Below, piece after piece: positions 2,698-35,742 of a stretch of DNA of 45,487 nucleotides. Below the pieces are notes generated by a model. That model searched no databases and had not been told where the DNA came from. It saw nothing but the letters and a program-made list of their open reading frames with translations. The stretch is from a virus. Taxonomy: Duplodnaviria; Caudoviricetes. The stretch lies in IMG/VR virus record IMGVR_UViG_3300027815_000001, positions 1 through 45,487 of that record; one strand, given 5' to 3'. Position numbers and translations under genes: made by a program. Position 1 is the stretch's first letter; each line of letters starts with the position of its first letter.

Positions 2698-3348
2698 ATG
2701 GTAGACGAAGAAAAGGCACTGGATGGAGTCTTGCCGCAAACTCTGACCTACCGTTACTATGTAAAGGCAAGGAATGGGAAGAAGCGAGACTTCATCTATG
2801 ATTTCGCAAAGGCACGGAAGTGCCCGCACCCGAACTTGGTGGCTACGGCAATGGGCGGCAACACGTATCGGTGTACGGAGTGCAACTACTTCTACACCAT
2901 CGTGACCGCCTATGCCGAGCCGATGCACTTGGCTACAGTCAAGGCTGCCTACCAACTCTTGCACTTCAGCAAAGAGTTTGGGGTAGAAGCCTTGCAGGAA
3001 GTCCTACGGCAACCTCATGGACAGTCGGACGGTACTCCCCAGAAAGGTGTTCTGCCAGAGGGGATGAACTTTGCTGACGTTCTCGCTGCGTTGGAATCGG
3101 TCAATGTCAATACGCCAGACCGAGGCGCAGCAGAACTAAGAACGTTGGTGGAGTCCACTTGGCCGTCCGAGGTGGAAATGAAACGCCGAATAGAAGCGTT
3201 GCGTGGAAGTGATGCTCCCGGGAAACGGGAGTACGCTGACAAGCTAGAAGGCATGTTGGAGGCTAGAAATGCCCTTACAGGAAGTCATGGGGAAGTGCCC
3301 TCTCTGCCAGAAGCAGCAGAGCCGAATCTACCGCAAGGGGATTCGTGA
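2698..3348 (+). CDS. Hypothetical zinc-ribbon protein
   Basis: AAGGAG RBS; CPH...YRCTEC motif. Confidence 0.65.
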   Translation: MVDEEKALDGVLPQTLTYRYYVKARNGKKRDFIYDFAKARKCPHPNLVATAMGGNTYRCTECNYFYTIVTAYAEPMHLATVKAAYQLLHFSKEFGVEALQEVLRQPHGQSDGTPQKGVLPEGMNFADVLAALESVNVNTPDRGAAELRTLVESTWPSEVEMKRRIEALRGSDAPGKREYADKLEGMLEARNALTGSHGEVPSLPEAAEPNLPQGDS

Positions 3349-4222
3349 AGACCCCGAACGGCTAGTCTACGAATGCGGATTCTGTGGACTGGTCTACCTG
3401 GACAACAGAATAGCTGACCTGAAGGAATACTATCGTTCCGTCTATCGCAAGACGCACGATAGCATCCCAGGTCAGCAACTAACAGCGGAGCAACGGTTTC
3501 ACATTCAGTACGACCTGGCGCGGCCTTCGGTGAGAAAGTTCACCAGTGAAGTGCCGCCTGGTTCGTCTGTGTTGGAAATCGGCTGCTCCGCTGGCGGTTT
3601 TCTGGGGCATTTGGTGCAGAAGGGCTACGATTGTTACGGCAGCGAATGGAATCCAGAAGATGCAGCCTTTGTGCGTGATGTTGGCGAGATTCCTTGCGAA
3701 GAAGGAGACCTCGGCGACATCTACCCTGGCAAGAAGTTCACGGCCATTGTCGCCATAGCGACCATTGAGCACATCGCTGACCCTATGGCCTTCCTGCGTT
3801 CTTGCAGAGAGAAGTTGATAGGCGGCGGTTGGCTTTACCTAGAGACACCCAATCTACAGGACGCCTTGCTGTCCATGTACGAGTGCAAGGCGTATGCCGA
3901 CTTCTGGTTCAGGGAACCGCACATCACCTACTGGAAAGCCGAGACGTTGGGGGCAGTGGTAGCTGCCACAGGCTTTGAGGCCCGTGTGTTCTGGTATCCA
4001 CGGTATGGGCTACACAATCATGTCAACTGGCTCCTCAATGGGAAGCCGATGCAGGACGTAAAGCAGGCCCGTGGCAGGCTTTCACCCGTGCCAAAGACAA
4101 ATCCAGGAGCGGGCGCACTGAACCGCATCTGGGATCAGCTTGATGAGGAATACCGAGTCCAGATGGAGACGCTGTCTGTCGCCGATACACTGACCGTAAT
4201 GGCTAGGAGGCGGGAGATTTGA
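3269..4222 (+). CDS. Class I SAM-dependent methyltransferase with N-terminal zinc-binding motif (glycan-locus type)
   Basis: CPLC...CGFCG, VLEIGCSAG SAM motif, IEHIADP and LYLETPN motifs; GGAGG RBS. Confidence 0.85.
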   Translation: MPLQEVMGKCPLCQKQQSRIYRKGIREDPERLVYECGFCGLVYLDNRIADLKEYYRSVYRKTHDSIPGQQLTAEQRFHIQYDLARPSVRKFTSEVPPGSSVLEIGCSAGGFLGHLVQKGYDCYGSEWNPEDAAFVRDVGEIPCEEGDLGDIYPGKKFTAIVAIATIEHIADPMAFLRSCREKLIGGGWLYLETPNLQDALLSMYECKAYADFWFREPHITYWKAETLGAVVAATGFEARVFWYPRYGLHNHVNWLLNGKPMQDVKQARGRLSPVPKTNPGAGALNRIWDQLDEEYRVQMETLSVADTLTVMARRREI

Positions 4223-5028
4223 GCGACGTTCCTTCTCTTCGCCATCTGATCGTAGAGGAAGACCTGAACAAAGAACTGTTCGGCATACGGGCCTTCCCTA
4301 TGCGTGAACAGTACAGGAACCCTACCGACAACTGGGGCATGGACTTCGGCATGGACATGCCTCTGCCGTGGTTGAAGCAAGTCCATAATGCCTATGCCGG
4401 CAAACGATGCTTCATGCTAGGCACAGGCCCTTCTTTGAAGGCGCAATTAGATTTGTTGCCTAAGCTGGCAGGGGAGTTCACCTTCACCTGCAACCGCATG
4501 AAGCTCTGGGGAGAGTTGCCGTTCAAGCCCTTTGTGCATTGCATTACGGAGCCGAACCCAGTCATAGACTTCGGCCAGCGCATCAAGTCGCTTTATGACT
4601 TCCCAGGGGCCATGAACAAGGTGGCCTGTATCTGGTGGCCCGTGGTGGCTAAGGGCTGGTTGTGGATGCCCAAAGCTAGCGACGATATTCAGGTGCGATG
4701 GAACGGGACGTGGGGGTTGGGTGAGCACTTGCCGCCCGTACCTACGGCATGGGCGTCTCCATTGACCATCACGCAATTGGCCCTATGGATGGGGTTCTCC
4801 GAGGTCTACATGCTGGGGGTGGACACAACGCAGCAGGGGCAAGCGTGGGATGTAGACCAGGGGCGGACAGCGAAGCCTCGGAGCATCCGTTCCATCTTGG
4901 AATGCGCTGAACGGATGAACAGGGACATCAAGCGTAGTGGGCGGCAGTTCTGGGATTGCACACCAGGCGGGCGGCTGAATACAGAGGGGGCCATAGCCTA
5001 CAAATCCCTGGGAGAGGTACTTCTATGA
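4219..5028 (+). CDS. Maf/DUF115-like putative glycosyltransferase, paralogue 1
   Basis: GKRCFMLGTGPSL, FTCN, LALWMGFSEVYMLGVD and DCTPGG match the MAF_flag10/DUF115 pattern. Confidence 0.8.
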   Translation: MSDVPSLRHLIVEEDLNKELFGIRAFPMREQYRNPTDNWGMDFGMDMPLPWLKQVHNAYAGKRCFMLGTGPSLKAQLDLLPKLAGEFTFTCNRMKLWGELPFKPFVHCITEPNPVIDFGQRIKSLYDFPGAMNKVACIWWPVVAKGWLWMPKASDDIQVRWNGTWGLGEHLPPVPTAWASPLTITQLALWMGFSEVYMLGVDTTQQGQAWDVDQGRTAKPRSIRSILECAERMNRDIKRSGRQFWDCTPGGRLNTEGAIAYKSLGEVLL

Positions 5029-5150
5029 CAGAAGCGTTTGCCTACGGTTTGGCCTTTGGGTTGACATTCGGCGGGCTTGCGGGGCTGGTTGTAGGGTCAC
5101 TGGCAGAAGACGCCTTTGACTTCATCAAGTTCTGGGATAAGAGACGTTGA
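5025..5150 (+). CDS. Small membrane peptide (41 aa)
   Basis: MTEAFAYGLAFGLTFGGLAGLVVGSLA is one hydrophobic helix; the ORF overlaps both neighbours by 4 nt. Confidence 0.55.
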   Translation: MTEAFAYGLAFGLTFGGLAGLVVGSLAEDAFDFIKFWDKRR

Positions 5151-5869
5151 TGGAACATCCCAATGCTGCCAATCTTGCCGCCCTGCACAACATAGCCAGT
5201 GGGCGCATCTTTATGCTTGGTACAGGGCCTTCGCTCCTCAAACAGCAGGACTTGCTGCCAAAGTTGCGCGACGAGGCCACTTTTGCCTGCAATAGTCTTC
5301 CCCGCTGGAAAGAGTGCCCTTTTGTCCCAACCTATTACGCCGTCACGGATATTTACGGGGCAGCCTTGCTCAAAAAATATATCTGGCCTAGCCTACAATG
5401 CCCAAAGTTCCACATTGGATGGGATACCGAGGAAAGCATACCTGAGTTCCAGTGGGTGCATAAGGCTCACGATAGCATCCAGGTCTTTTCACAGGGCTTT
5501 GTTGGGTTTGGTGAAAGCCTGCCACCTATCCCCACAGGACGCACGTCGCCGCTGACCATGTGCCAGCTTGCTGCGTGGATGGGCTACCGAGAGTTCTACT
5601 TCCTGGGTATAGAGCAAAGCGACCACGGGTATGTGTATAACCCAGAGGTGAGCTTGGGGCATTCAGGGCGTGGTTTCAATTATGGACAACGGTATCTGTT
5701 GGCGGTGCAGCGGTGCTTTGCACGGGCGCGACTGGACATAGAAGCTGCGGGGGCAAAAGTCTATGACTGTACGCCTGGTGGTTGGTTGAACAACACAGGC
5801 CAGGCAAAGCGCGGGGTAGGGCACAAGGCAGTGCTGGAATATAAGCCATTGGAAGAGGTGCTGAAATGA
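5147..5869 (+). CDS. Maf/DUF115-like putative glycosyltransferase, paralogue 2
   Basis: RIFMLGTGPSL, FACN, LAAWMGYREFYFLGIE, DCTPGG. Confidence 0.8.
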   Translation: MMEHPNAANLAALHNIASGRIFMLGTGPSLLKQQDLLPKLRDEATFACNSLPRWKECPFVPTYYAVTDIYGAALLKKYIWPSLQCPKFHIGWDTEESIPEFQWVHKAHDSIQVFSQGFVGFGESLPPIPTGRTSPLTMCQLAAWMGYREFYFLGIEQSDHGYVYNPEVSLGHSGRGFNYGQRYLLAVQRCFARARLDIEAAGAKVYDCTPGGWLNNTGQAKRGVGHKAVLEYKPLEEVLK

Positions 5870-6879
5870 GTTTCTGGAAAGGCCAAAAGGTCACGGTCAC
5901 AGGATGTTCGGGCCTGATGGGAGCGCCGCTCTGCAAGTTTCTTCTTGAAGAAGGGGCGCAACTCACAGGCTACGACATGGCCGGGGATGGAATGCTGGCT
6001 GAGTATGGGCTAGTGGGCCAGTTCCCGCTACAGGTGGAGGACATCCGAAACCGAGAGGCCCTATGGCAAGCGGTGCGGCGACGTGGATTTGTCTTCCATC
6101 TTGCAGCCGTGAGCGGGGTTGAGGCGTCTCGCCAGAATCCCAAGCGGGCCTGGACGGTGAATTGCTCTGGGACTGGCGTCGTGCTGGACGTGTGTAAATC
6201 GGCAGGGACGGATGGGGCTGTGGTGGTAGCATCCAGTAACCACGTCTATGGGTTCCAGGAGAAGATGCCTGTACCTGAGACGGCGCAGTTGAACCAGTTG
6301 GACACGTACTCTGCCACCAAGATCGCCGTGGACTATATGGCCCGCTCCTATGCCCACAACTACCGTCTCCCAACGGTTATCATGCGGAACACCAACTGCT
6401 TTGGGCCGCACGACCCGCACAGGGATCATATTGTAGGGGGAACGCTCTTCGGGCTTGCGCAGGGGCAACGGCCTGTCATTCGCGGGACTGGGAAAACCAG
6501 CAAATCCTATCTCCATGTGGCGGATGTGGTAAGGGCGTACATGGCGGCAGCTGAATGGGAGGCAGGCTCAGGACGGTGTGGGGAGGTCTTCAATGTCTCG
6601 GACAAGCCCATCACCGTGCTGGACTTTGTGACGCTCATGTGCAAAGCCACAGGGCATCTGGACATGACGCCTACCGTGTTGGGGCAGTCCAACGACCAGA
6701 GCAATGAGTGGCTGGACGATTCCAAGATAAGGACGGTGACGCCGTGGAAGCCACGCTACAGCCTAGAATCCGCAATACAGGAGACGTATCAGTGGGTGCT
6801 GGCCTCACTAGAGACGCTTACAAAGGAGAACGCCTCTTTGTCCTCGGCACAGGGCCTTCGCTCAAAGATTGCAACCTAA
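5866..6879 (+). CDS. NAD-dependent nucleotide-sugar epimerase/dehydratase (extended SDR)
   Basis: VTGCSGLMG Rossmann motif, VFHLAA, ASS, YSATK catalytic YxxxK, RNTNCFGP. Confidence 0.9.
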   Translation: MSFWKGQKVTVTGCSGLMGAPLCKFLLEEGAQLTGYDMAGDGMLAEYGLVGQFPLQVEDIRNREALWQAVRRRGFVFHLAAVSGVEASRQNPKRAWTVNCSGTGVVLDVCKSAGTDGAVVVASSNHVYGFQEKMPVPETAQLNQLDTYSATKIAVDYMARSYAHNYRLPTVIMRNTNCFGPHDPHRDHIVGGTLFGLAQGQRPVIRGTGKTSKSYLHVADVVRAYMAAAEWEAGSGRCGEVFNVSDKPITVLDFVTLMCKATGHLDMTPTVLGQSNDQSNEWLDDSKIRTVTPWKPRYSLESAIQETYQWVLASLETLTKENASLSSAQGLRSKIAT

Positions 6880-7418
6880 AGAAGCTAAAGGGCGAATACA
6901 CCTTTGGCGTCAATGGCTTATGCGCATGGAAGAACGCGCCCAAGCTGACCTTCTACGGCCTGAGCGAGCACGGGTCATGGGAGCGATGGGCGACACTAGC
7001 ACGGGATACCTTTAGCGGGGCTACGTTCATTGGGGCGAATCAGGGCCGCGCTCCGGTGAATGGGTGGTACATCGTGGACAGACGGTTCAGTTGGCCGTTG
7101 CATGGTGGATACTTCGGTGGACGGGATGCAGAGTTCCAGTGGGTGGCGATGTCGTACTCAGTGGTTTACGAGCTTTGCTTGCAAGCAGCTTTTTGGCTTG
7201 GTTTCCAGGAGGTCTATTTGTTGGGCTGCGACCATAAAGGCACGGAGCATGTGTACCAGGGCCACAACAAGTACCAGCCCGCACATCTGAGCACCCTTAT
7301 CCCAGGGGTACAGACGTGCCTTGACGTTTACAGCCAAGCAGGGCGCAAATTGCTGGACTGCACCCCAGACTCGGGGATCGGTATCATACCGCATAAACCA
7401 TTGGAGGCAGTGCTATGA
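6792..7418 (+). CDS. Maf/DUF115-like putative glycosyltransferase, paralogue 3
   Basis: GERLFVLGTGPSL, FGVN, AFWLGFQEVYLLGCD, DCTP. GTG 6792 has an AGGAG RBS, a better start than 6708. Confidence 0.8.
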   Translation: MGAGLTRDAYKGERLFVLGTGPSLKDCNLKKLKGEYTFGVNGLCAWKNAPKLTFYGLSEHGSWERWATLARDTFSGATFIGANQGRAPVNGWYIVDRRFSWPLHGGYFGGRDAEFQWVAMSYSVVYELCLQAAFWLGFQEVYLLGCDHKGTEHVYQGHNKYQPAHLSTLIPGVQTCLDVYSQAGRKLLDCTPDSGIGIIPHKPLEAVL

Positions 7419-8143
7419 ACACCATCGCAATCATACCAGCTAGGGGTGGAAGCAAAGGCATTCCGCACAAGAACATCGTGCCCTGCGCTGGTAAGCCATT
7501 GCTGTCATGGACGATAGAAGCGGCGTTAGCAGCGCACAGCGTGAGTCAGGTGATCGTGTCTAGCGACGACAAGGATATTCTGGATTGCGCCGTGCGTTAC
7601 GGGGCGCTGGCGTTCTTGCGCTCAGACGTGTTGGCGAAGGACGAAACGCCAACAGAGCCAGTGATGCAGGAGGTACTGCAAAGTCTAACGGAAGAACCTG
7701 GCACAGTCGTGCTCTTGCAGCCAACATCTCCTGTGCGTACAGGGCAGCAGATTGACGAGGCCGTGGCGGTGTTAGAGCGTGGTTATGCCTCTGTGTTGTC
7801 CGTAGTTCCAAGCCATGCCTTCCTTTGGAGGTGGCAACCTGGGAGTGCTGTAGCTGAGTACGACTACGCGCATCGGCCCCGGCGTCAAGAGTTCTCCCAG
7901 TTCCAAGAGAACGGGAGCATCTATGTGACCACGTATGCGCAATGGAAGCGTACAAGAAACAGAATTGGTGGGCGTATCGGGCTTTACATCATGCCTGAAG
8001 AATCAGCGCTCCAAATTGACACCCCACTAGACCTCTACTTGGTAGAGAAGATTTTGGAGCGGCAACATGGTCATGCTGGGGCAACGACTGGTAGCGCAGG
8101 ATCAGCCTCCGTATCTGTGCGCGGAGATTGGTATCAATCATGA
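7415..8143 (+). CDS. neuA: CMP-nonulosonic acid (acylneuraminate) cytidylyltransferase
   Basis: IIPARGGSKGIPHKNI, LLQPTSP, ENGSIY and IDTPLD are NeuA/PseF family motifs. Confidence 0.92.
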   Translation: MNTIAIIPARGGSKGIPHKNIVPCAGKPLLSWTIEAALAAHSVSQVIVSSDDKDILDCAVRYGALAFLRSDVLAKDETPTEPVMQEVLQSLTEEPGTVVLLQPTSPVRTGQQIDEAVAVLERGYASVLSVVPSHAFLWRWQPGSAVAEYDYAHRPRRQEFSQFQENGSIYVTTYAQWKRTRNRIGGRIGLYIMPEESALQIDTPLDLYLVEKILERQHGHAGATTGSAGSASVSVRGDWYQS

Positions 8144-8957
8144 CGGGAGCCTTGAACGTGCGCTTTGGCTCATAGACCAGGCGTCGCTTGCAGGCGCACA
8201 TGCCGTCAAGTTTCAGAAGCGCACCCCTGAACTGGCTGTCCCGCGTTCCGAGTGGGATAAGCCTAAAGAGACACCCTGGGGCGAGATTATGCCCTACATT
8301 GAGTACAAACGGCGCATGGAGTTCGGACGGGCAGAGTATGACGCCATTGCCCAACGGTGCAAGGACGATGGGATTGATTGGTTCGCCTCCCCCTGGGACG
8401 AACCATCTGTGGAGTTCCTGGAACAGTACGAGCCAATCGCTTACAAGATAGGTTCCCCCTCTTTGACGGACAAACCGCTCATAGAGCGCATCATCAAGAC
8501 GGGTAGGCCCATCATCCTCTCCACGGGCATGTCCACCATCTATGAGATAGGTCAGGCCGTTTGGTGGCTGCACGACCAGCAACGGCGACTGATTCTGCTT
8601 CACTGCACGTCCATCTATCCTTGCCCGCCGGACAAGATGAACCTGTCTATGCTCAGAACGCTAAGAGAAGCCTTCCCGCACGTCGTTATCGGATACTCTG
8701 GGCATGAACGTGGCACTGACCATGTGGCGGCGGAAGTGGCATTGGGGGCCTGTTTCCTGGAACGCCACTTCACCAAAGACAGGTTCGCTAAAGGCTCAGA
8801 CCATGCAGCAAGTCTAGAGCCGTGGCAGTTCTGCGACCTTGCAGTGAAGGCTAACAGGACGTGGCTGGCGCTTGGCAATGGCGAGAAGCAGGTCTATGCT
8901 GAAGAACAAGCGAATGCTGCCAAGCTCAGGCGGTCACTGTTTCAGGAGGTGCATTGA
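8067..8957 (+). CDS. neuB: Nonulosonic acid synthase (NeuB family), without C-terminal SAF domain
   Basis: AEIGINHDG, KFQKR, KIGS, STGMS, LHCTSIYP, GYSGHE, ERHFT, GSDHAASLEP. Confidence 0.93.
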   Translation: MVMLGQRLVAQDQPPYLCAEIGINHDGSLERALWLIDQASLAGAHAVKFQKRTPELAVPRSEWDKPKETPWGEIMPYIEYKRRMEFGRAEYDAIAQRCKDDGIDWFASPWDEPSVEFLEQYEPIAYKIGSPSLTDKPLIERIIKTGRPIILSTGMSTIYEIGQAVWWLHDQQRRLILLHCTSIYPCPPDKMNLSMLRTLREAFPHVVIGYSGHERGTDHVAAEVALGACFLERHFTKDRFAKGSDHAASLEPWQFCDLAVKANRTWLALGNGEKQVYAEEQANAAKLRRSLFQEVH

Positions 8958-11350: not shown

Positions 11351-12739
11351 TTGGCGACCACGACCTTGCAAGTGGCCCGTCGTGAGTTTGGCCGTCGTCT
11401 TGGCTATGGCGAAATCATGGGCAAGGACGGCGCGGCCTGGACGACTACCACGAACCTTGCAACGACAGCCGTCATTATCTCTACAAACCTGAGAGACTAC
11501 GGTTTTGACGACTTGTTGGCTGCGGGCAGTGGTGATGACATCCTGCAAAACTTGTGGACGATCATCCTGGGGACAAACAACAACGGGACGGTAAGGCGTG
11601 TCAAGTCCTACGATGCTTCTGCGGGTGAAGCTACTGTAGCGGGCACAGTCCTTGCAGCCGAGTCTGGCAACACAGACTTTGAGTTTCATCGGTACTCGCC
11701 CACGTTGCTCCGTGAAGTCTTGAACTCTGCTGCACGGCGGGCTTTCCCCCTACTTCATCTTCCTGTGACCAGGACGCTTTTTACAGCAGGGAATCAGGTG
11801 CGTTACGAAGTCCCAGCGGCCATCATTGGCAAACCTGTACGCATCTACCTGGACACTGGGGTACTCTACACTTTTGCCAACAACATTCTATCCAACGCTG
11901 GGTTTGAGACTTATTCCAGCGGCTTCACGTCCTGGACTGCCGATGCGAATATCACGGTAGCCCAAGAGACAGCAACCACAACGCCTGTGAACTACGCCGT
12001 CTACCGCGATTATTCAGCGGCCAAGCTCACCAATGGCACGACTGGTACGAAGCGGGACTTTGAGCAGACCATCTCTAGCCCTGGTACGCATACGGGGCTA
12101 AGGGTGTCCTTCTCAGTTTGGGTGTACTGCTTGGAGGCGAACAGTATCACCACGCAGATTAGCAACGACTCAGGTGACACGATTGGGACAGCGGCTGGTG
12201 GGGGTGTACATGGCGGCACGGGCTGGGAACTCCTCACGCAGACGATGGACTACATCACGAGCAGCACGACGCTAAAACTTGGCGTGTCCTTCGTTGCAGG
12301 GGCCAGCACTGGGCTTGCGGTGTATGTGGATGAGGCAATCTGCGTGGTTGGGCCTACACAGGAACCTGAACTGCCCGGGGAACCATTGCTGAGTTGGGAA
12401 TATGTCCCGCAGGTGCAAGGCACAACGCTCCGGTCAGAGGTGGTATTCCCTGGCACGTTGCCTGACAAATGCCGCCTTCGCTTTGAAGGCAAGGGGTTCC
12501 TGTCCACGCTCACGGCAGAGACGGACACCATAGAAATCGGGCCACCTCAGACGGATTTGCTCTACGCTTTTGCCAAACAAGAGCTTTACGAACGGCTCTT
12601 GCAAAATGCTCTAGACAACGACTCCAAGACCTACGAGCGGTTGCGTAAGCTGGCAGAGAATCAGATAGCAGACCTCTCGCGCATCTTTGCCATGCCGTCC
12701 CAGAGCCACAGACTACAAGTCCCTGATTGGAGTTACTAG
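11351..12739 (+). CDS. Putative tail adaptor/tubular protein with inserted carbohydrate-binding-like domain
   Basis: Helical N- and C-terminal parts flank a beta-sandwich starting NILSNAGFET (CBM4/9-like); position in the tail module. Confidence 0.55.
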   Translation: MATTTLQVARREFGRRLGYGEIMGKDGAAWTTTTNLATTAVIISTNLRDYGFDDLLAAGSGDDILQNLWTIILGTNNNGTVRRVKSYDASAGEATVAGTVLAAESGNTDFEFHRYSPTLLREVLNSAARRAFPLLHLPVTRTLFTAGNQVRYEVPAAIIGKPVRIYLDTGVLYTFANNILSNAGFETYSSGFTSWTADANITVAQETATTTPVNYAVYRDYSAAKLTNGTTGTKRDFEQTISSPGTHTGLRVSFSVWVYCLEANSITTQISNDSGDTIGTAAGGGVHGGTGWELLTQTMDYITSSTTLKLGVSFVAGASTGLAVYVDEAICVVGPTQEPELPGEPLLSWEYVPQVQGTTLRSEVVFPGTLPDKCRLRFEGKGFLSTLTAETDTIEIGPPQTDLLYAFAKQELYERLLQNALDNDSKTYERLRKLAENQIADLSRIFAMPSQSHRLQVPDWSY

Positions 12740-15115
12740 ATGCCAGGGGCCGGGCAGACACATCATGTCATGTTCAAGGATTCAAGCGGAGGCAACAAAA
12801 CTGGCCTCCGCTTACTTGAAGATGAGGAGGGGAAACTGCTCTACGGCTGGGAGCTTGCGCCGGCGCTGGCCCCTGGCGTGGAGTCAAAGGACGTGCAGTA
12901 CGGGCAGTACGATCCTTCCCAGGAGCTTGTGTGGTCGCAAGACGACTGGCAAGGCGGGGCGCTGCGCTTCTACTACAATCCGCGCGATCCCGCGAAGTAC
13001 GCCGTAGCAGACGGAGTATGGGCGCTTTCCCCGAATGAGTTATCTACTGCGGGATATGCGGAACCGTTGACCTTTGGTGTGCTCAATGGCAGCTTTGAGA
13101 TGGGTGACACCACGGGCTGGTCGCATTCTGGTCTGACTCTCACTGTCGTGACTACAGCACCCTACCGAGGTATCTACCATTTACAAGCTGCTAGTTTTGC
13201 GACATCGGATTACGCCTATAGTACGCTTGCAAATGGGACTCGCTGGGCTGGCGCAGTCGTTATGGTGCAGGCATTCGTGCGTGGCTCTGCTGCCGGAGGG
13301 ACACTGCGAGTACAAATTGTTGAGACGGGTGGCGCTTCCACTCCAACAACTTCTGGAACAGGGGTAGTCCTTACCACAACCTATCAGCAAATCTCTGCTA
13401 CCGTTACCCTACAATCAGACACTACCGGCATTGACATTCGTATACAGATGGAGGACGACGGCGGGAGTGCCCGCACGGTCTATATTGACGATGTGAATGC
13501 CTACGCTGGTGGAACAACGACGCCGCATAGTATTGCAACGCCTGTGAACCTCCGTCAGCTTGTACAGAACGGAAAACTTCTTCTAGCCACAGAGTCGGCA
13601 GTTTGGCTCTACACGGAAATTACCCACTACTGGGCATTGCAGAAGTATTTTGGGCAAGCCATTACGGGGGCGGAGGTTTTTGACGACCGCCTGTTTATCG
13701 GGCAGGGAGAGTCTACCGCTTACCAATACAGTGACGTGGCTGATCCTGCGACATGGACAGTCTCAACCATTGCCAGCACGGGGAAGAACGCCAATTACTT
13801 CGGGAAAACGTTGAATGCTAATGGGAACTGGGCGCTTGCCAAGACGCTGAACGATGATGATGTTCACTTGGCTACCGATCCTACAAATACAGGTTCTTGG
13901 GGATCCGCTATCAATGTGGGTAAGGACGATCATGGTGTAACCAACGTCTATAATCTTGGCGGGACTATCGCTGTAGGAAAACAGGATGGGTTCTACCAAT
14001 TCTTGAGTCTTGACGGAAGCCAATTCGTCAATGTGTACCCAATGGATTCAGCCGTTAATTCACGGAATTTTCGGCGCGGCATTGTGTATGAGAACTTGTT
14101 TTGGACGGTTGTGAATGATACTGGTCTAAGTGTGTTCAATGGTGTTAGATGGCAGTCTATGAACTGGTTATTCAGGACGCCTGGTTTCAGTGAGTTTGGG
14201 AACTCTATCAAAGGCTTTGGGACTGACGGTGAGTGGCTTTACCTTGCACTGGAAGATAGCACTGCCCCAACAACTGACAAGACTTGCTATTTGTTGGCAG
14301 TGCAAAACCAAGAGAGTGCTTGGGTTTGCCATACAATCGCCTCATTTAAGGCCAGTGATGTCATTGACATGGTTATCTGGCGGGATGCTGCTGCCGCTGC
14401 TGCCGCCTTCAACCGCAGGTTTATCTATATTCATGGCAACGATGGATCGTCTGACATTTCCTACCGTTTTCCCTTGCCAGAGCGAAGCAATACTCCCAGG
14501 CGTTCCACCTATCCACTTCTCCCATTGACCAGCACATTCATTACATCTTATTGGGATGGAAATCGCCCACAAGTCCAAAAAGTGGCACATGACCTTGACT
14601 TAATCACCGAGGAATTGACGGCCAATGTATCCATTACTGTTGATTATCAGAAAGACAATGAAACTTCCTGGACTGCTATTAATGCCTCAGATGCAACATT
14701 CAACACTAGTCCTTATGAGACTATCGCTTTCACGGCTGGTACAACCTTCAGGCGTATCAGGCTGAGATTTACTTTCACGTCTAATGTCACGACCGCTACG
14801 GCTGTGCTAAAGGCTTTTGTGCTGCACATGCACTGGCGTCCAGACCGTCTCCAGCAGTGGTTACTAGTTGGTGCCATAGAAGACGGGCTGCGTGGCTTGC
14901 AGGGGGCTGCGCCTGCCTTGCCAGCCAAACAGATGCTTACTCAGTTGGCAACGTTGCGGGACGCAAAGGCCGACGTGACGTTCACCGACATTGACGGCAC
15001 GACCCACACGGGGCATATCGTTGACATGAAGGAGACCCAGGTGAAGGGGCGTGTCGGTTCTGGGGGGCAGGCGGTCTACAGCCGTGGCGTCCAAATCCTT
15101 TTCCAGGAGGGGTAG
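12740..15115 (+). CDS. Putative tail nozzle/tubular protein B with CBM-like insert
   Basis: 791 aa, beta-propeller-like, C-terminal FRRIRLRFTF motif, NGSFEMGDTTGW insert; podovirus gene order. Confidence 0.6.
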   Translation: MPGAGQTHHVMFKDSSGGNKTGLRLLEDEEGKLLYGWELAPALAPGVESKDVQYGQYDPSQELVWSQDDWQGGALRFYYNPRDPAKYAVADGVWALSPNELSTAGYAEPLTFGVLNGSFEMGDTTGWSHSGLTLTVVTTAPYRGIYHLQAASFATSDYAYSTLANGTRWAGAVVMVQAFVRGSAAGGTLRVQIVETGGASTPTTSGTGVVLTTTYQQISATVTLQSDTTGIDIRIQMEDDGGSARTVYIDDVNAYAGGTTTPHSIATPVNLRQLVQNGKLLLATESAVWLYTEITHYWALQKYFGQAITGAEVFDDRLFIGQGESTAYQYSDVADPATWTVSTIASTGKNANYFGKTLNANGNWALAKTLNDDDVHLATDPTNTGSWGSAINVGKDDHGVTNVYNLGGTIAVGKQDGFYQFLSLDGSQFVNVYPMDSAVNSRNFRRGIVYENLFWTVVNDTGLSVFNGVRWQSMNWLFRTPGFSEFGNSIKGFGTDGEWLYLALEDSTAPTTDKTCYLLAVQNQESAWVCHTIASFKASDVIDMVIWRDAAAAAAAFNRRFIYIHGNDGSSDISYRFPLPERSNTPRRSTYPLLPLTSTFITSYWDGNRPQVQKVAHDLDLITEELTANVSITVDYQKDNETSWTAINASDATFNTSPYETIAFTAGTTFRRIRLRFTFTSNVTTATAVLKAFVLHMHWRPDRLQQWLLVGAIEDGLRGLQGAAPALPAKQMLTQLATLRDAKADVTFTDIDGTTHTGHIVDMKETQVKGRVGSGGQAVYSRGVQILFQEG

Positions 15116-15616
15116 GTGGAGAAGCACGAGACGAACCACTGGAAGTACGACGGGAGCACACAGACCTACCAAACAAAACTAGGCCAGGGGCGTCCCGTAG
15201 AGGTGGTTCGCAAGACGGCGGATCAAACCAACAACAGCAATACTCTGGTAGATGACACTGAGTTGAAGCTGGCAGTACGCGCTAACACCGTCTGGTGGCT
15301 ACGGCTTTTCATTAGAGCAACGTCCCCGGCAGCAGAGGACATGAAGTGGGGGTGGACACTTCCTAGCGGAGCAACGATAGAATGGTCTGAACTGGGAGAT
15401 TTTGCATCTGGCTCATTTCTTACCCCAAACACGACTGGGACTGAAGCAGTTTCTACGGCTGGCGGGGTGGACGAGGTCAACATTATTGAGGCGTTGGTTA
15501 TAGTAGGTTCTACGGCAGGGACGATTCAGTTCCAGTGGGCGCAACTAGGTGGGCTTGGTGGTAGCCCCACAACGGTCTACGCCAACTCTGTGCTCTTGGG
15601 AATCCAATGCGCATGA
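15116..15616 (+). CDS. Putative minor tail/virion protein
   Basis: AGGAGG RBS; beta-rich, with GTIQFQWAQ and TTVYANS patterns seen in minor tail proteins. Confidence 0.55.
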   Translation: MEKHETNHWKYDGSTQTYQTKLGQGRPVEVVRKTADQTNNSNTLVDDTELKLAVRANTVWWLRLFIRATSPAAEDMKWGWTLPSGATIEWSELGDFASGSFLTPNTTGTEAVSTAGGVDEVNIIEALVIVGSTAGTIQFQWAQLGGLGGSPTTVYANSVLLGIQCA

Positions 15617-15648: not shown

Positions 15649-15906
15649 ATGACGACTGACGAGACTTCCCCTACATCGGAACCACCAAAGGTTCCCAAGA
15701 GGCCGCGTAGTGCCCCACGCAAGCCTGCGCCTCCAACCCAAGAGGAACAGCTTGCCGAGGATATGCGGCTGATTGCTGAGAGTGCTAAGGCTGTCGGTAT
15801 GAAATCGCTAAGGACACTGGCGGAACGGGGCCTCACTTTCCTGGACGCTCTAGGCGACCAGTCAACTCCTGATACCACGAAGAAGCTGCCACTGAAGAGG
15901 AAGTAA
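15649..15906 (+). CDS. Hypothetical protein (Pro/Lys-rich N-terminus, amphipathic helix)
   Basis: ORF coupled to the next gene by TAATG; start uncertain (15607, 15613 or 15649). Confidence 0.55.
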   Translation: MTTDETSPTSEPPKVPKRPRSAPRKPAPPTQEEQLAEDMRLIAESAKAVGMKSLRTLAERGLTFLDALGDQSTPDTTKKLPLKRK

Positions 15907-16127
15907 TGGGATGGCTGACCAGTTCCTTGATGGCAAGCGTGGTAGTCGCAGTTGTAGCAGTCCGAATCTGCGAGTACCTCTTTGGGGGTGTGACCAGCGG
16001 CTTGGGCTGGGGTGTGAGATACGCGGTCTTTTGCCTGACCTGGACGGCAGTTACTACACTAACTGGAATGCACGGTGTTTCTAAACAGATGCGCCGGTTG
16101 AAACAAACAATGATAAGGAGAATCTAA
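15906..16127 (+). CDS. Small two-helix membrane protein (holin-like topology)
   Basis: Two hydrophobic segments and a basic C-terminus; TAATG coupling on both sides. Confidence 0.55.
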   Translation: MGWLTSSLMASVVVAVVAVRICEYLFGGVTSGLGWGVRYAVFCLTWTAVTTLTGMHGVSKQMRRLKQTMIRRI

Positions 16128-16249
16128 TGGGGCCAAAAGAATTTATGTACCTTGGAATCGTTGGCCTTATCGGGCTTGTCCTGGGCGGCGGCCTCACCTG
16201 GCTTACGAAGTTCTTCAAGGGCAAGAATAACACCACGCCAAAGGCATAA
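16127..16249 (+). CDS. TatA-like single-TM peptide (40 aa; not in ORF track)
   Basis: AAGGAG RBS. MGPKEFMYLGIVGLIGLVLGGGLTWLTKFFKGKNNTTPKA has GxxE, a short TM helix, a Gly hinge and an amphipathic FFK segment, and sits directly upstream of tatC. Confidence 0.5.
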   Translation: MGPKEFMYLGIVGLIGLVLGGGLTWLTKFFKGKNNTTPKA

Positions 16250-17073
16250 CCATCTGGACACCACAGGCGCAGGCCGCACTCAAGCGGTTTGCGGGAAGGG
16301 TACGCCGGCGGCTTCTCTGGATAATCATCGCTTGGGCAATAGGTGCAAGCAACACCTGGTGGTTCCGAGAGGCGGTGTTTGCGTTCCTGTTTGCCCCCGC
16401 TAACGGCGCTTTGTCGCCTTACGGGGGACTCCCCATCTTCACAAGCCCAGGCGGGATGATGGGCGTTACATTTAGTCTGGCGGTAAAGGGCGGCTTGGTC
16501 GCTGCGTTCCCCGTTGCAGTAGTTAGCGTCTACACGCTGGTGAGGCCGTTGCTGAGTCCACAGCATCGGCGGATTGTCATCCTCTTCCTGCCTGCTATCC
16601 TCGTGTGTTTCCTCGCTGGGGTAGCGTTTGCCTATTTCGTGATGCTGCCCACAGGGATGAAGTTTCTCCTCAATTTCGGAGAGGGCATCGCAGTCCCGCT
16701 CATCAGCATCACGGAATACATGAGCCTGGTCACATCGCTCATTTTCTGGATTGGCGTGACCTTTGAGTTGCCGCTTGTCATGCTCCTTCTCACGAAGCTG
16801 AGGCTCGTACCATACGAGCGCTTCAAGCGAGCTAGCAAGTACGTTCCTTTCGCGGCAGTTGCCCTAGGCGGGTTTATCACGCCCACGGTTGATGAAGTCA
16901 ATCAGACGTTGATAGCAGTACCAATCATCCTCTTGTATGGGTTCGGGCTGTTCCTGTCGTGGCTGGCACGGGCAAAGCCGGTGGGCCACAAGAGCATCTG
17001 GCAGAAAGCTAAGGCGTGGTTCAAGGGCTGGCTAGACCGCTTGGCTTGGCGGTGGTTCTCATTCTGGCAGTGA
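16246..17073 (+). CDS. tatC: Twin-arginine translocase subunit TatC homologue (divergent)
   Basis: Six hydrophobic segments. GVAFAYFVMLP, ISITEY, FWIGVTFELP and ITPTVDEVNQTLIAVPIILLY match TatC. A TM1-like segment (RVRRRLLWIIIAW) lies in frame upstream of the called GTG 16375, so the true start is near 16246. Confidence 0.88.
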   Translation: MTIWTPQAQAALKRFAGRVRRRLLWIIIAWAIGASNTWWFREAVFAFLFAPANGALSPYGGLPIFTSPGGMMGVTFSLAVKGGLVAAFPVAVVSVYTLVRPLLSPQHRRIVILFLPAILVCFLAGVAFAYFVMLPTGMKFLLNFGEGIAVPLISITEYMSLVTSLIFWIGVTFELPLVMLLLTKLRLVPYERFKRASKYVPFAAVALGGFITPTVDEVNQTLIAVPIILLYGFGLFLSWLARAKPVGHKSIWQKAKAWFKGWLDRLAWRWFSFWQ

Positions 17074-17075
17074 GT

Positions 17076-17204
17076 TCATGGCTTGTGCCTGTGGTTGTAT
17101 AGCCGGAAAGTAAGCATGGCCAACCACACATTGGTCATCACCGACAAAACAAGAATGGCCCTACTTATCCATTCAATCGCAGCAGTCAGTTCTTCGGGTG
17201 TCAT
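17076..17204 (-). CDS. Small membrane protein (42 aa)
   Basis: AGGAG RBS; MTPEELTAAIEWISRAILVLSVMTNVWLAMLTFRL. Confidence 0.55.
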   Translation of the reverse strand: MTPEELTAAIEWISRAILVLSVMTNVWLAMLTFRLYNHRHKP

Positions 17205-17677
17205 CGCTTCACTCCTGTAGGCCCTGGCGACTTCGCAAACGTAGGCCGGGCGTAGGCCCTGGGGATACCCGTGACATTCGCCCCGTTGCCCTCGTTGCGG
17301 TAGTTGTGGCTCACCGCATCCTCCTGGGCCTGCGCGTACTTCTCCGAGCTTATGGCGGCGTGGCCCGTAGCCTCCCAATGCTCCCTAGTCCAGGGAACCT
17401 CTCTTGACTGTGCCTCGCTGCACGACAGGCAGAGCATACGCTCCGGGGGTTGCGCGATCCATTCCTTGCGGACTTCCTTCGGGCTAGGCTGCGCAGGCTT
17501 CTCCCTGGCCCACTGCTGAGCCTTACGCATCTGTTCGGATGTGGTAGCCATGATACGCCTCCTGCACGTCTCTGTGTGTGACCATGTGATGCGTTGGCGC
17601 TCTTCGTAGTCGTTCGCAGCCCGTAGGTTGATGGGGCGGCTACAGTGCGGGCAGACGGCGGGCGTTACGGTGGTCAT
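17201..17677 (-). CDS. Hypothetical Cys-motif protein
   Basis: CPHC and CLSC motifs; a strong internal RBS (AGGAGG) precedes an in-frame ATG at 17551. Confidence 0.6.
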   Translation of the reverse strand: MTTVTPAVCPHCSRPINLRAANDYEERQRITWSHTETCRRRIMATTSEQMRKAQQWAREKPAQPSPKEVRKEWIAQPPERMLCLSCSEAQSREVPWTREHWEATGHAAISSEKYAQAQEDAVSHNYRNEGNGANVTGIPRAYARPTFAKSPGPTGVKR

Positions 17678-18942
17678 GTTGTCTCCAATGAGCGGGTGTA
17701 GCCCTTGTTGCCGAGGCTCAGGTTATCCTCTGCGCCTGGGCGTTTGTCCTTGCGGCGGCTGGCGTTACCGATAGGCCCATTCAGTGGCGAGGCGTTCATG
17801 TCCTGCAAGCCTGTGCCCTCGTATGGTGGCGACGTGATGATGGCGTCTACAGGGCGGGTGTAATCGTATTCTCGTTTTGACCGCTCTGTAAACGGCTTAC
17901 CAGATGCTGCGAAGCGTTGTTCGTCGTTGGCTGAAGTGTGCCCCTCGTATGGCGGGCTAGTTATCACGGCGTCCACACCGTTGCCCTGGCCCTCTGGCTT
18001 CCTGAACGCCAGCACGGTTTCAAACTTCAACCGCTCGTCAAAGGCCGCTGGGTCACGCCGCTGCTGCAAGATGCGCCAGAAGCTCAGGCTCCAAAGCTCT
18101 CGCAACCATTCGTCGTGCTTCACCCAGCCCTCTTCCAGCAGCAGGGCCTCGGTCTGGCTGGGCAGGTCAACGTACTTGCCGTCACGGGTGAAGCCCTTTA
18201 GCACAAGGGCCATGAGGCCACCAGGTTTGAGAACCCTGAAGCACTCACGATACACGGCACTTTGAGCTTCCCAATATGCAGCCCCTCGGAGATTTCCGAT
18301 GTTCTCGCCGCCTCTGGCTTCATGTCCCCTTGTGGTGATGCCGTCTGTGTAGCTATGAAAGTCCTGCTTAGTCAGCGAAAGGTCGTTTACGCCACCGTCT
18401 TGGCGTAACCCCTCGTATGGCGGGCTTGTCAGGATCGTGTCCACCTGGGGGCGGGTGTAGCCTGTTATTCCAAGGGCATGTGCGCTATTCGGGTCACGCC
18501 CAGTTTGGATGGCTTTCTTTTCATTGAAAACCCTATCTTGCATCGCCACAATTCCTTCAAATGGTGGCGATGTAACCACGCCCGTCACGCAGGCATCGGG
18601 CAGCGGCAGCTTCCGTGCATCGCCCTGTAGAATCGTCACCTGGCCCATCGTGTAGCCCAGCATAGGGTGCTGTTTCATCTTCTCCCATGAGGCCCGCATC
18701 GGCTCTACGAAGTGGCTTTCCAGTTCCACAAGAACGACGTTGCGGCCCATAAGCGCCGCTATCATGGACGTTCCGATGCCGCCCATCGGGTCAAGAACGG
18801 TATCGCCCTCTTTGGAGTAGCGCAGCACCATCTCTTCCCACATGGCGATGTGGCCCTTTGCCGGATGCGCCATTGCCCCGTCTACCCAGAGCAGCTTGCG
18901 CTTCGGGCCGTCGTTCTTGAAACGCAAGACGGGGGTGGTCAC
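17674..18942 (-). CDS. DNA amino-methyltransferase (N4-C/N6-A) with four SPP[YF] motifs
   Basis: HPAK, VLDPMGGIGT (motif I), GDAR, ECFRVLKPGG, and TSPPF/TSPPY four times. Confidence 0.85.
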   Translation of the reverse strand: MTTPVLRFKNDGPKRKLLWVDGAMAHPAKGHIAMWEEMVLRYSKEGDTVLDPMGGIGTSMIAALMGRNVVLVELESHFVEPMRASWEKMKQHPMLGYTMGQVTILQGDARKLPLPDACVTGVVTSPPFEGIVAMQDRVFNEKKAIQTGRDPNSAHALGITGYTRPQVDTILTSPPYEGLRQDGGVNDLSLTKQDFHSYTDGITTRGHEARGGENIGNLRGAAYWEAQSAVYRECFRVLKPGGLMALVLKGFTRDGKYVDLPSQTEALLLEEGWVKHDEWLRELWSLSFWRILQQRRDPAAFDERLKFETVLAFRKPEGQGNGVDAVITSPPYEGHTSANDEQRFAASGKPFTERSKREYDYTRPVDAIITSPPYEGTGLQDMNASPLNGPIGNASRRKDKRPGAEDNLSLGNKGYTRSLETT

Positions 18943-33911: not shown

Positions 33912-34186
33912 ATATCTCTATCCTCTAAGGCAAAGCTGCAGTCTTAGCTGTTGCGGATAGCTTGCTGCTTGGTATGACCAGTGGTAGCACCGTCGCTGCA
34001 ACGGAGAGAGTCGGTTGAGGGAGACGCCACGTCTACTGAGCAACTGGGTCATGTAGACTAATACGTGCGTGTAGCGTCTCTGTTGCTGGGGTGCTTCTAG
34101 TGCTTCTTAGCGAGAGAAGCTAGGAACGGGGGTGCTGAGACGTTGGGGACGCCCTCTCCGTAGGTTCTCCCGTAGTATATATAGTG

Positions 34187-34280
34187 TCGTTACAAGGTTT
34201 TTTAGATAGGAGCCAGATACGAAAAGTGTTACATTTTAGGTGTCACGAATGGTGTTACAGGAATTACGTATTGTGTTACA
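34187..34280 (+). repeat. Array of GTGTTACA-like direct repeats
   Basis: Exact copies at 34226, 34252 and 34273; variants near 34187, 34240 and 34262. Confidence 0.55.
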
Positions 34281-34305
34281 GAGATTTAGGGTATAGGATA
34301 GGATT

Positions 34306-34614
34306 ATGGGAAGGACGAAGGAACAGAACAGGGTATACATGAGGGCGTATCGTGCGGAGAAGGCGGCGAGGCTGAGTCGTGCGGAGAAGGAAGCGAACAG
34401 GCAGTGGTGGGAGAGGTGGTTGGGGAGACAGCCGTGGGTAGCGGCGATAAAGGAAGGTTTGTGGTCGGATGAGGGGGAAGTGAAGGCGGCGAGGGCGGTG
34501 TATCGGAGGGAGTTGAGTGGGTTAGTGCCGCCGATGGAGGAAGAGATGAAGGCGTTGAGGGGGAAGAAGCTGAGGTGGTCAAAAGTGACGCATGAAAAGG
34601 CAGGAGGGCGATAA
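34306..34614 (+). CDS. Basic hypothetical protein
   Basis: AGGA RBS; Arg/Lys/Glu-rich helical sequence. Confidence 0.6.
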   Translation: MGRTKEQNRVYMRAYRAEKAARLSRAEKEANRQWWERWLGRQPWVAAIKEGLWSDEGEVKAARAVYRRELSGLVPPMEEEMKALRGKKLRWSKVTHEKAGGR

Positions 34615-34934
34615 TGATTCTGCATTTCTTTGACGCAAGGACAGAGGTCTCGGTGCGGGAGTGGGGCATGAAGGAAGTTTTGCCTATTCCGCGAGTTGGG
34701 GATCAGGTGTGTTTGGCTTATGGGGATAAGAAGGAAGGAGCCAGCGGGATGTGGGTAGTTGTGGACGTGACGTGGAATCATTGGAATAAGGATGATCCTA
34801 GAGACCTTGTTGTTGACATTGGGCTGAAGCCTTATGAGGAAGGTGATTGGGTTGGAACTGCGGATGAGCAGTTGAAGGCAGATGGGGTGTACGGACTTCG
34901 GGTTGGCAAGGTTTCCGAGCAAAGGGGCGGGTAA
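34614..34934 (+). CDS. Hypothetical protein
   Basis: TAATG coupling; PIPRVGDQV motif. Confidence 0.6.
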   Translation: MILHFFDARTEVSVREWGMKEVLPIPRVGDQVCLAYGDKKEGASGMWVVVDVTWNHWNKDDPRDLVVDIGLKPYEEGDWVGTADEQLKADGVYGLRVGKVSEQRGG

Positions 34935-34960
34935 AGGCATGGAAGCTAAGGAGTAGGTTT

Positions 34961-35242
34961 ATGGCTTATCCAATAATAGGCAGTATAACGGCTGTGTCCG
35001 TATTTCTTGTTGGCTTGTTTGTCTTTTACAAGATGTACCGTTATAAAGGTGAGGAAATTTCCCCAAATGTGGTTTTGGAGGAGGTTGACCTACGTGTAAT
35101 TTTAGAGGACATGATTCCATTAGTAGTGATTTCTCTTTTTAGTTTCATGGCGTGGCCTGTGATTCTTTTCTGTGGGATAGTTCTCATGGTGGCCTACGTC
35201 TTTAAGTGCATATTGGCCGTGAGGGTAAAGCATGGAAGCTAA
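34961..35242 (+). CDS. Membrane protein (2-3 TM helices)
   Basis: AAGGAG RBS; hydrophobic and AT-rich. Confidence 0.6.
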   Translation: MAYPIIGSITAVSVFLVGLFVFYKMYRYKGEEISPNVVLEEVDLRVILEDMIPLVVISLFSFMAWPVILFCGIVLMVAYVFKCILAVRVKHGS

Positions 35243-35738
35243 GGCGTTGGTGCTTATTGAGGAGTCGCTGAAGGTAAGGCGCGGCATGAAGGGGCGTGAA
35301 CTGGTGGAGGCGGCGTACCTGGACAGTGGGGAAGGCGTCAAAGAGGGCTGGCACTTGCTCAGGGAAGAAGAACGCGGAGTTGTTGCCCAGATGGTGCGCT
35401 ACGCGGGGGAACTTGGGAAAGTGGGAGAGGCTTTGAGATTAGAGCCTGAGTACATTCAAAAGATGATGGAAGTGAGGCCGTGGGTGAAGCGGGCCATAGA
35501 CTACTACATGGAGGTTGGGGTAGAGGCATTGAACAGGGCCGTAGTGCAGCAGCATGTGAGCGAGGGCTTGTTGGACACCGTGCCCGCTGTGCTCCGGGGG
35601 AAAGAGGTGGCAGCGGAGACGAAGCGGAAGACGGTGAGGGACATGATGGAGGCCGGGGGATACTACCCGAAGATGGGCGGGCCGATGGTGGCGAACCAGG
35701 TCAACGTGAAGGTTGAAGTCCCTGACTGGAAGAAGTAA
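35232..35738 (+). CDS. Putative terminase small subunit
   Basis: Helical protein with a C-terminal beta strand (QVNVKVEV), directly upstream of terL. Confidence 0.55.
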   Translation: MEAKALVLIEESLKVRRGMKGRELVEAAYLDSGEGVKEGWHLLREEERGVVAQMVRYAGELGKVGEALRLEPEYIQKMMEVRPWVKRAIDYYMEVGVEALNRAVVQQHVSEGLLDTVPAVLRGKEVAAETKRKTVRDMMEAGGYYPKMGGPMVANQVNVKVEVPDWKK

Positions 35739-35742
35739 GGCG

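Follow-up and report, generated by a model that had tools for sequence, protein, structure and literature searches.

The described systems closest to the locus reported here are the minimal TatA-TatC translocase of cells and the holin-endolysin cassettes of phages. In TatC, residues of the H12, E15, F94 and E103 type (E. coli TatC numbering throughout) bind the twin arginines and the consensus phenylalanine of the signal peptide (PMC13323110), the double substitution F94A/E103A abolishes signal binding, and T208 and Q215 contact E8 of TatB or Q8 of TatA (PMC5201420). Here we describe four coupled genes, g1 to g4, at the end of the late operon of a phage, the last of which encodes a TatC homologue designated TatC*. 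They lie in the window, by which we mean the whole stretch of DNA analysed (IMG/VR record IMGVR_UViG_3300027815_000001, here G000; 45,487 bases), a whole-genome circular phage record. Its terminal direct repeat of 127 nt supports the completeness that a preliminary description, made from the letters of the window, had claimed for it. The module consists of the following features:

15649..15906 (or from ATG 15607), + strand: g1, 85 aa (99 aa from ATG 15607)
15906..16127, + strand: g2, 73 aa
16127..16249, + strand: g3, 40 aa, a single-transmembrane peptide
16241..16254, + strand: AAGG ribosome-binding-like motif and ATC start; AAGG lies 7 nt before the ATC, and the ATC 3 nt past the g3 stop
16252..17073, + strand: g4 (tatC*), 273 aa from ATC 16252; 275 aa from ATA 16246

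The junctions between g1, g2 and g3 are TAATG overlaps, and the TatC frame follows, with its stop at 17073. At roughly even odds (about 0.5), we read the four genes as a cargo-independent, membrane-breaching exit module for virion release. The grounds are the single clade formed by the phage TatCs, their pattern of lost and retained residues, the gene order, the lack of detectable lysins and cargo in the proteins scanned, and the replacement of the module by another cassette in sister phages.

TatC* and its three partner proteins

TatC* matches the TatC family PF00902 with 156 bits (E 1.6e-45; curated cut-off 25.1), and its AF2 model (pLDDT 78) has the six-helix TatC fold. Foldseek returned seven matches at E<=0.001, all of them TatC, and against Aquifex TatC (4b4a) the model gave E 1.3e-8 with TM-scores of 0.70/0.84. 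BFVD yielded one TatC-like match, of 418 aa and without a name, which adds nothing to this assignment, and in PHROG the protein matches family 36238, a TatC-like family with no assigned function. Descent and fold alike make TatC* a TatC, as the preliminary description had proposed.

To locate substitutions, 51 phage TatCs were compared with 69 cellular TatCs. H12, E15, Q90 and F94 are kept in none of the 51 (E15 is R in 39 and K in 9; F94 is L in 48), and E103 is kept in six, this position also holding Q (21), R (9) or H (5). Altogether, 45 of the 51 keep none of H12, E15, F94 and E103, whereas all four are present in 61 of the 69 cellular proteins; in the window the substitutions are H12F, E15R, F94L and E103H. 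Y100 was uninformative, being variable in host TatCs too. Among the retained positions are T208, P209 and D211 (each 51/51), Q215 (39/51) and E170 (42/51), together with structural Pro/Gly positions and the outer cap, and the window's protein retains all of T208, D211, Q215 and E170. The net charge of residues 9-20 shifts from about +0.6 in cellular to +5.1 in phage TatCs, and the latter carry an added basic, Trp-rich C-terminal helix or tail (median 51 aa, net +9, 3 Trp), the C-tails of cellular TatCs being shorter (medians 16 and 6 aa in two sets). A motif scan for twin-arginine cargo in 492 proteins of the window and eight relatives found none, its sole match being helix 1 of TatC* itself. 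Since the signal-peptide site is lost clade-wide and no twin-arginine cargo was detected, the module is, on the evidence of these sequences, not a standard Tat translocase, and the export of a folded phage protein, one of the options raised in the preliminary description, is not supported in the form of a minimal TatAC system for twin-arginine cargo.

The tatC* frame becomes open shortly ahead of the g3 stop, and its first ATG, GTG or TTG lies at 16375, where a start would remove helix 1. At the codon 3 nt past the g3 stop, the 91 loci compared have ATC (13), ATG (11), TTG (9) or GTG (7) among others, and tatC* probably starts by weak, coupled initiation at the near-cognate ATC 16252. A g3-TatC* fusion produced by frameshifting was considered and rejected: the g3/g4 phase varies (56/31/4 across the 91 loci), so no conserved fusion frameshift is present.

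The g3 product has the build of TatA/B, with a polar residue (an N-terminal Glu) before one N-terminal transmembrane helix, a hinge Gly and an amphipathic helix that is short and basic. E5 and G22 are conserved at >=90%, and all 50 g3 proteins have a Glu or Asp among residues 1-12. The F-G-P-x-x-L-P hinge motif of TatA/B is absent from g3, and hhalign aligned it with TatA/B at 69.5%, over 12 columns only. Median dN/dS for g3 is 0.43.

In g2, two hydrophobic segments, an invariant Gly and a basic amphipathic C-tail (net +7) make up a holin-like build. The protein is diverse (124 clusters at 50% identity), with no known family in Pfam or PHROG, no match in 401 genomes of a Dehalococcoidia class sample, and a top match of 0.79, below the chance bar, in an ESM Atlas search. 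The g1 product, without a Pfam or PHROG family match or a transmembrane segment, comprises a disordered, Pro-rich and charged N-tail, a helix, a conserved AG turn, an amphipathic helix and a Lys-rich end; the N-tail is acidic in most relatives, while the window's own g1 is net basic. It is likely a peripheral regulator or scaffold. Descent of g2 and g1 from TatA/B was rejected, hhalign giving 7.2% and 0.1%, respectively.

Several variants of this part of the module were seen. In one lineage (L006:9587-9858, L044, L048, L065, L071, L077, L083, L084 and L091) g2 is split into two frames, with an X XXY YYZ slippery heptamer at codons 28-29 in nine of nine split and none of 18 intact g2 genes. The predicted products are a 49-aa transmembrane-plus-amphipathic protein and, via a -1 shift, the full two-transmembrane form, possibly a holin/antiholin-like pair. 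Four further loci (L085, L090, L009 and L010) have a split g2 without the heptamer. At L001:9001-9823, a 65-aa open reading frame (ORF) and an endonuclease ORF, which from its motif we take to be HNH-like, are inserted between g2 and g3.

Recurrence, origin and likely host

Of 3244 candidates in a protein search, 728 were homologues at E<=1e-5, and the 120 homologues listed, apart from the window's own protein, have 51-73% identity. In IMG/VR, 13 loci carry TatC relatives, and metagenomes gave 474 relatives from the 27 of 64 parts scanned, of which 80 were kept. Of the best 80 hits from 53 of the 64 parts of the species-genome collection, L094 alone exceeds 50% identity, the next best being Chloroflexota at <=45%. 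L094 was rejected as a host TatC: it lies on a 29-kb contig that carries five virion gene clusters, assigned to a Planctomycetaceae metagenome-assembled genome (MAG), and is taken as a binned phage contig, and this MAG has a second TatC elsewhere in its genome. The window's tail protein, used as a query, returned one identical contig, which ends before the module.

The resulting set of 95 loci (the window and L001-L094) falls into 53 TatC clusters at 90% identity and 13 at 70%. Virion-gene matches are present in 26 of the 33 loci with >=3 kb of upstream DNA, compared with 0 of 79 cellular loci; the other seven are taken as viral from the module alone. The synteny recurs in these viral loci, with g1 found in 60 of the 61 loci whose upstream DNA is long enough, g2 in 78 of 79 testable loci and g3 in 91 of 95, three of the misses having <80 nt upstream and L034 having 261 nt in which none was found. 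Median pairwise dN/dS for tatC* is 0.25 (1101 pairs) and the frame is free of internal stops in 91 of 92 loci, a substitution pattern that places tatC* under purifying selection. Recurrence in many TatC clusters, together with this selection, argues against both a chimera and a decaying capture, two of the faults that the preliminary description had named as fatal to the module: the relatives are many and intact, and a single 45,129-nt contig spans 12500-19500 with zero differences in two sequencing runs, possibly the source runs of the window.

The origin of the phage TatCs was addressed with two trees. FastTree was run on 120 rows: 51 phage TatCs (L013 and L087 were dropped as short), 29 TatCs of the class sample, which comprised 401 genomes, incomplete MAGs, of the Dehalococcoidia (the class of G011), and 40 of 79 other cellular loci. 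IQ-TREE (LG+G4) was run on 43 hand-thinned rows. Except for G122, the host rows are the best scorers to the phage profile among the 335 of 401 class genomes with a match. One class genome, G257, is unpublished and contributes to nothing beyond the counts over the 401 genomes. The phage TatCs form one clade in FastTree (support 100) and in IQ-TREE (100/100), where this clade is nested in a 97/96 subclade with ten Dehalococcoidia TatCs. By this nested placement, the phage TatC is a capture from a Dehalococcoidia lineage. A cellular TatC, L221:1477-2274 (G323), is sister to the phage clade; it keeps H12, E15 and F94, position E103 holds T and positions T208/D211 hold D/N, and no tatA is found within its 3.7-kb locus.

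The penicillin-binding transpeptidase PF00905 was found in none of nine tested genomes of the subclade, incomplete MAGs, compared with 10 of 14 controls, and three times in G030, which lies outside the subclade. Loss of the peptidoglycan genes has been placed, as one event, ahead of Dehalococcoidales and the marine radiation (PMC10284905), and SAR202 cells possess an S-layer and no peptidoglycan (PMC11994032). One of the 401 class genomes, G122, holds the tail gene of the phage group (E 1e-207), in a prophage of about 40 kb (C4, about 784000-824000; L348-L351) on a contig of 1.36 Mb, with metabolic genes of the host on either side, an integrase beside tRNA-Arg and the same terminase-portal-capsid-tail order as the phage group. 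This prophage sits between tRNA-Arg and tRNA-His genes and contains a HigB/HTH pair; no lysin was found among its 58 proteins scanned, and no module-bearing prophage was found in the 401 genomes. The host of the module phages is likely a Dehalococcoidia without peptidoglycan. The preliminary description's expectation of a host with little or no peptidoglycan stands in this way, as likely, for the lineage, through the PF00905 result and the G122 prophage, and for the window's own host only by inference.

Virion release and its alternatives

On the + strand, the late operon begins at about 35.2 kb, crosses the origin and ends at 17073, where the strand switches, genes beyond 17201 lying on the - strand. 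Directly upstream of the module are:

11351..15616, + strand: virion genes of 462, 791 and 166 aa, with weak adaptor and minor-tail matches

Clusters c3 and c0 of these genes are common to the window and G001-G004, G006, G007 and G009; they place the module at the late-operon end and tie the window to the comparison phage group. The late operon closes with the module in the window, G001-G004 and G006-G009, including G008 with its unrelated head module, and the TAATG overlaps and this shared gene order confirm the four coupled, operon-terminal genes first described. A position at the late-operon end and small membrane proteins are features of a holin-endolysin cassette; a peptidoglycan hydrolase and any recognised holin or spanin family were not found, with no match to these lysis families in 74 chosen window ORFs (Pfam E<=0.1, PHROG E<=0.01), in 98 further window ORFs of >=78 aa (Pfam E<=0.001), or in 121 + 136 proteins of >=90 aa from G001-G004 and G006-G008 (G001 in part), 90 of these 257 also being compared with PHROG. 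Amidase_2 was absent in five of five records. The window scans therefore agree with the earlier statement that no endolysin or spanin is recognisable, and no conventional endolysin-holin pair, which the preliminary description had named as refuting it, was found in them.

The same slot is occupied differently in sister phages. A motif scan of IMG/VR (47 of 64 parts) for the shared tail gene gave 120 loci, 118 of them confirmed, in 66 clusters. Where >=5 kb of downstream DNA was available (21 loci, 18 clusters), the Tat module was present in one (L275, the record of G007) and another cassette in 17 clusters; none of the 18 showed both, some loci stopping short of the operon end.

L231:14841-16788; L233:2906-4985; L272:5308-6754; L290:2604-3974; 13 more clusters: alternative cassette, late-operon end of sister phages

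The large protein of this cassette (457 aa at most) is membrane-anchored; its N-helices are amphipathic, and a beta-solenoid is predicted in it (pLDDT 70). It had no PDB match at E<=0.001, the weak rows being beta-solenoids, and its top ESM Atlas match (0.76) was below the chance bar. It is usually accompanied by a 50-59-aa two-transmembrane protein (11 clusters; one weak holin match, E 0.034), and a 107-aa two-transmembrane protein and small amphipathic proteins also occur. The cassette is a candidate second exit system.

If the module is an exit machine, TatC* would be made at a low level by coupled, often non-ATG initiation, with g2 and g3 more abundant. The g3 peptide, and possibly host TatA/TatB, would dock at the kept TM5/TM6 polar site through the N-terminal Glu, and assembly would no longer await a signal peptide. 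TatC-driven thinning would then act jointly with basic amphipathic helices, those in g1, g2 and g3 and that of the added TatC* tail, to open lesions, the timing of which may be set by g1 or g2. Only an S-layer would lie outside the host membrane, so endolysin and spanin would not be needed. We infer every step from docking to lesion, and favour the exit module over its rivals in view of three published observations: TatBC thins the bilayer from 38 to 26 Å in simulation (PMC13323110); E. coli TatB F13Y allows TatA assembly without substrate, even on signal-blind TatC (PMC10092561), which makes substrate-independent TatA assembly possible; and TatA and some holins have been proposed to act alike by membrane weakening (PMC9527704). 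A fuller account, held slightly more tentatively, is that tailed phages infecting Dehalococcoidia/SAR202 without peptidoglycan took over the Tat core of their hosts on a single occasion, stripped it of the cargo gate and made of it an endolysin-free lysis machine. This would be the first virus-encoded Tat derivative and a new exit class, interchangeable with the beta-solenoid cassette.

A number of observations weigh against virion exit as the role of the module. Signal-blind E. coli TatC (F94A, E103A) fails to oligomerise TatA (PMC5201420), so that a further activating change must be assumed. The uncharged run of g3 has 18-26 residues compared with 14-15 in TatA/B, and the short mismatch helix may thus not be kept. 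The Pfam TatA family matched none of 50 g3 proteins, and the TatA/B profile scored >5 bits in one of 50 (L007, whose g3 N-terminus resembles host TatA) versus one of 37 controls; g3 scores are shifted weakly above the controls (p ~1e-3, for sequences related to each other). The peptide called TatA-like in the preliminary description accordingly keeps that likeness in shape and position and not in profile, and its TatA ancestry is plausible, unproven. With most genes of these phages matching no family, a divergent lytic enzyme could have escaped notice, and the alternative cassette has itself no annotated function. The G122 prophage has neither the Tat module nor the alternative cassette, its late operon ending in 92-aa and 44-aa two-transmembrane ORFs, so that exit may rest on small membrane proteins alone; and no direct link ties the window to its presumed host.

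The best-surviving alternative, which we consider unlikely, is that TatC* inhibits host Tat or remodels the surface, as a decoy, blind to signals, that would join host TatC in its assemblies and sequester TatA/TatB. Tat export of surface or receptor proteins would stop, leading to superinfection exclusion or to an envelope weakened before exit. The residue pattern copies that of the laboratory F94A/E103A (FEA) variant, which binds TatB and TatA and not substrate (PMC5201420), the lineage that donated TatC is also the likely host, which should make the subunits compatible, and the membrane-anchored beta-solenoid of the alternative cassette could work at the surface. A decoy, however, would need neither its own single-transmembrane peptide nor two more conserved genes, and the entire fold is kept, including the outer cap and E170. 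The genes also stand at the end of the virion operon and not in an early or lysogeny position, and the phage would be left without another recognised exit function.

Somewhat less probable still is a retargeted exporter that continues to move folded cargo but by another signal, perhaps an acidic one, such as the acidic g1 N-tail or a phage enzyme acting on the S-layer or its glycans. The change of E15 to R/K in 48 of 51 proteins, the charge shift at residues 9-20 (about +0.6 to +5.1), the acidic g1 N-tails of most relatives and the kept E170 and polar site are consistent with this proposal. It is harder to reconcile with the F94, G/A98 and E103 positions, which vary or hold bulky residues and form no new invariant pocket at E103, with the net basic g1 of the window, and with the lack of a conserved candidate enzyme accompanying the module or of twin-arginine cargo among the 492 proteins. 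The virion itself far exceeds the size limit of Tat transport and is too large to be the cargo.

Non-lytic budding or an aid to virion entry, in which the membrane is bent or thinned for vesicle-wrapped release or the particle carries the module to help DNA entry, is improbable. By position the module is co-transcribed with virion genes, and non-lytic release has been proposed for another Dehalococcoides virus lineage (bioRxiv 10.64898/2026.09.15.751708), but the phages are of the head-tail type, terminase, portal and tail fibres being present, and sister phages have the same virion genes without the module, which is thus not a core virion part. Finally, an artefact or decaying host capture, to which the missing ATG, GTG or TTG start of the window's tatC* and the loss of essential TatC residues might point, can practically be dismissed in view of the one contig across the region in two runs, the 53 clusters at 90%, the dN/dS of 0.25, and the loss of identical residues in every member while others are invariant.

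To our knowledge, how tailed phages leave peptidoglycan-free bacteria is an open question, and the dark ocean and groundwater harbour Dehalococcoidia (SAR202 and organohalide respirers) in abundance. Two candidate exit cassettes for such hosts are now available to clone. For the Tat field, some 50 diverged TatC clusters with cargo recognition removed and the TatA/B site kept constitute a natural experiment: if the module leaks or lyses, it offers a direct test of whether TatC/TatA thinning suffices to breach a bilayer, and if it only inhibits, its proteins would be the first natural Tat inhibitors known to us. The module also serves as a host marker for an unclassified phage group.

Other features and relation to known systems

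Profile matches in the window (Pfam/PHROG) include terminase, capsid, a DnaC-like loader, RusA and a NeuB/CMP-transferase/epimerase cluster; a promoter and terminator scan of the window remained at chance level, and repeats were unremarkable. The late operon contains a glycosylation cluster at 3269-8957 (a methyltransferase, three MptE-like/sialyltransferase-like paralogues, epimerase, CMP-transferase and NeuB), with the virion or the host's surface as possible targets of modification; in G001 a similar place is taken by another kind of sugar cluster. The DNA methyltransferase encoded at 17674-18942 contains a TSPP(F/Y)EG motif four times, and at 34001-36000, upstream of the terminase genes and near the strand switch, a very strong positive GC skew (maximum 0.47) marks a possible origin or packaging region. 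In G003, a DedA/VTT-domain membrane protein is encoded just downstream of tatC* on the opposite strand (L180:12244-12807). In the assembly graphs of runs X3 and X4, breaks occur at 15585-15614 and 17047-17076, the two ends of the module, and a minor branch (depth 5.4) from the left break carries a diverged g1, which fits a joint movement of the four genes. A co-occurring contig of depth 200 carries a tatC* about 85% identical to that of the window.

In the full-text literature that could be reached, which leaves most subscription journals outside, no study of a phage Tat system was found, in line with the preliminary description. The sole mention is the Fig. 6 legend of PMC10564846, where a circular marine virus bears a TatC Pfam label and a Prim-Pol gene. 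In combining TatC with a Prim-Pol gene this virus resembles G004; 'TatC' strings in PMC9327680 proved to be primer letters. A GenBank phage collection contains eight TatC matches at 28-32% identity, four annotated tatC (records of 98-582 kb) and four unannotated. The module is phage-specific and apparently undescribed.

With TatC and the minimal TatA-TatC system (PF00902; PDB 4b4a, 9dzz, 9e01 and 9e07) the module shares the six-helix fold, the T208/D211/Q215 site and E170, and with cellular tatAC the small single-transmembrane gene directly before tatC. It differs from cellular Tat in being phage-encoded and confined to one clade, in its lost binding residues, its lack of twin-arginine cargo and two extra genes, and in a TatC* with a long basic, Trp-rich C-tail and a frequent non-ATG start. 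Late-operon end, small transmembrane proteins, basic amphipathic tails and overlapped genes are shared with holin-endolysin-spanin cassettes and with TpeE-type TatA-like holins (PMC9527704); unlike those cassettes, the module has no endolysin, spanin or holin-family match, and it includes a polytopic TatC, which is part of no described cassette that we found. In its residue pattern TatC* resembles the E. coli FEA variant, signal-blind yet binding TatB and TatA (PMC5201420). Unlike FEA and TatB F13Y, which are laboratory variants, the phage TatCs appear to be blind naturally, with a blindness that is fixed across the clade and maintained under purifying selection.

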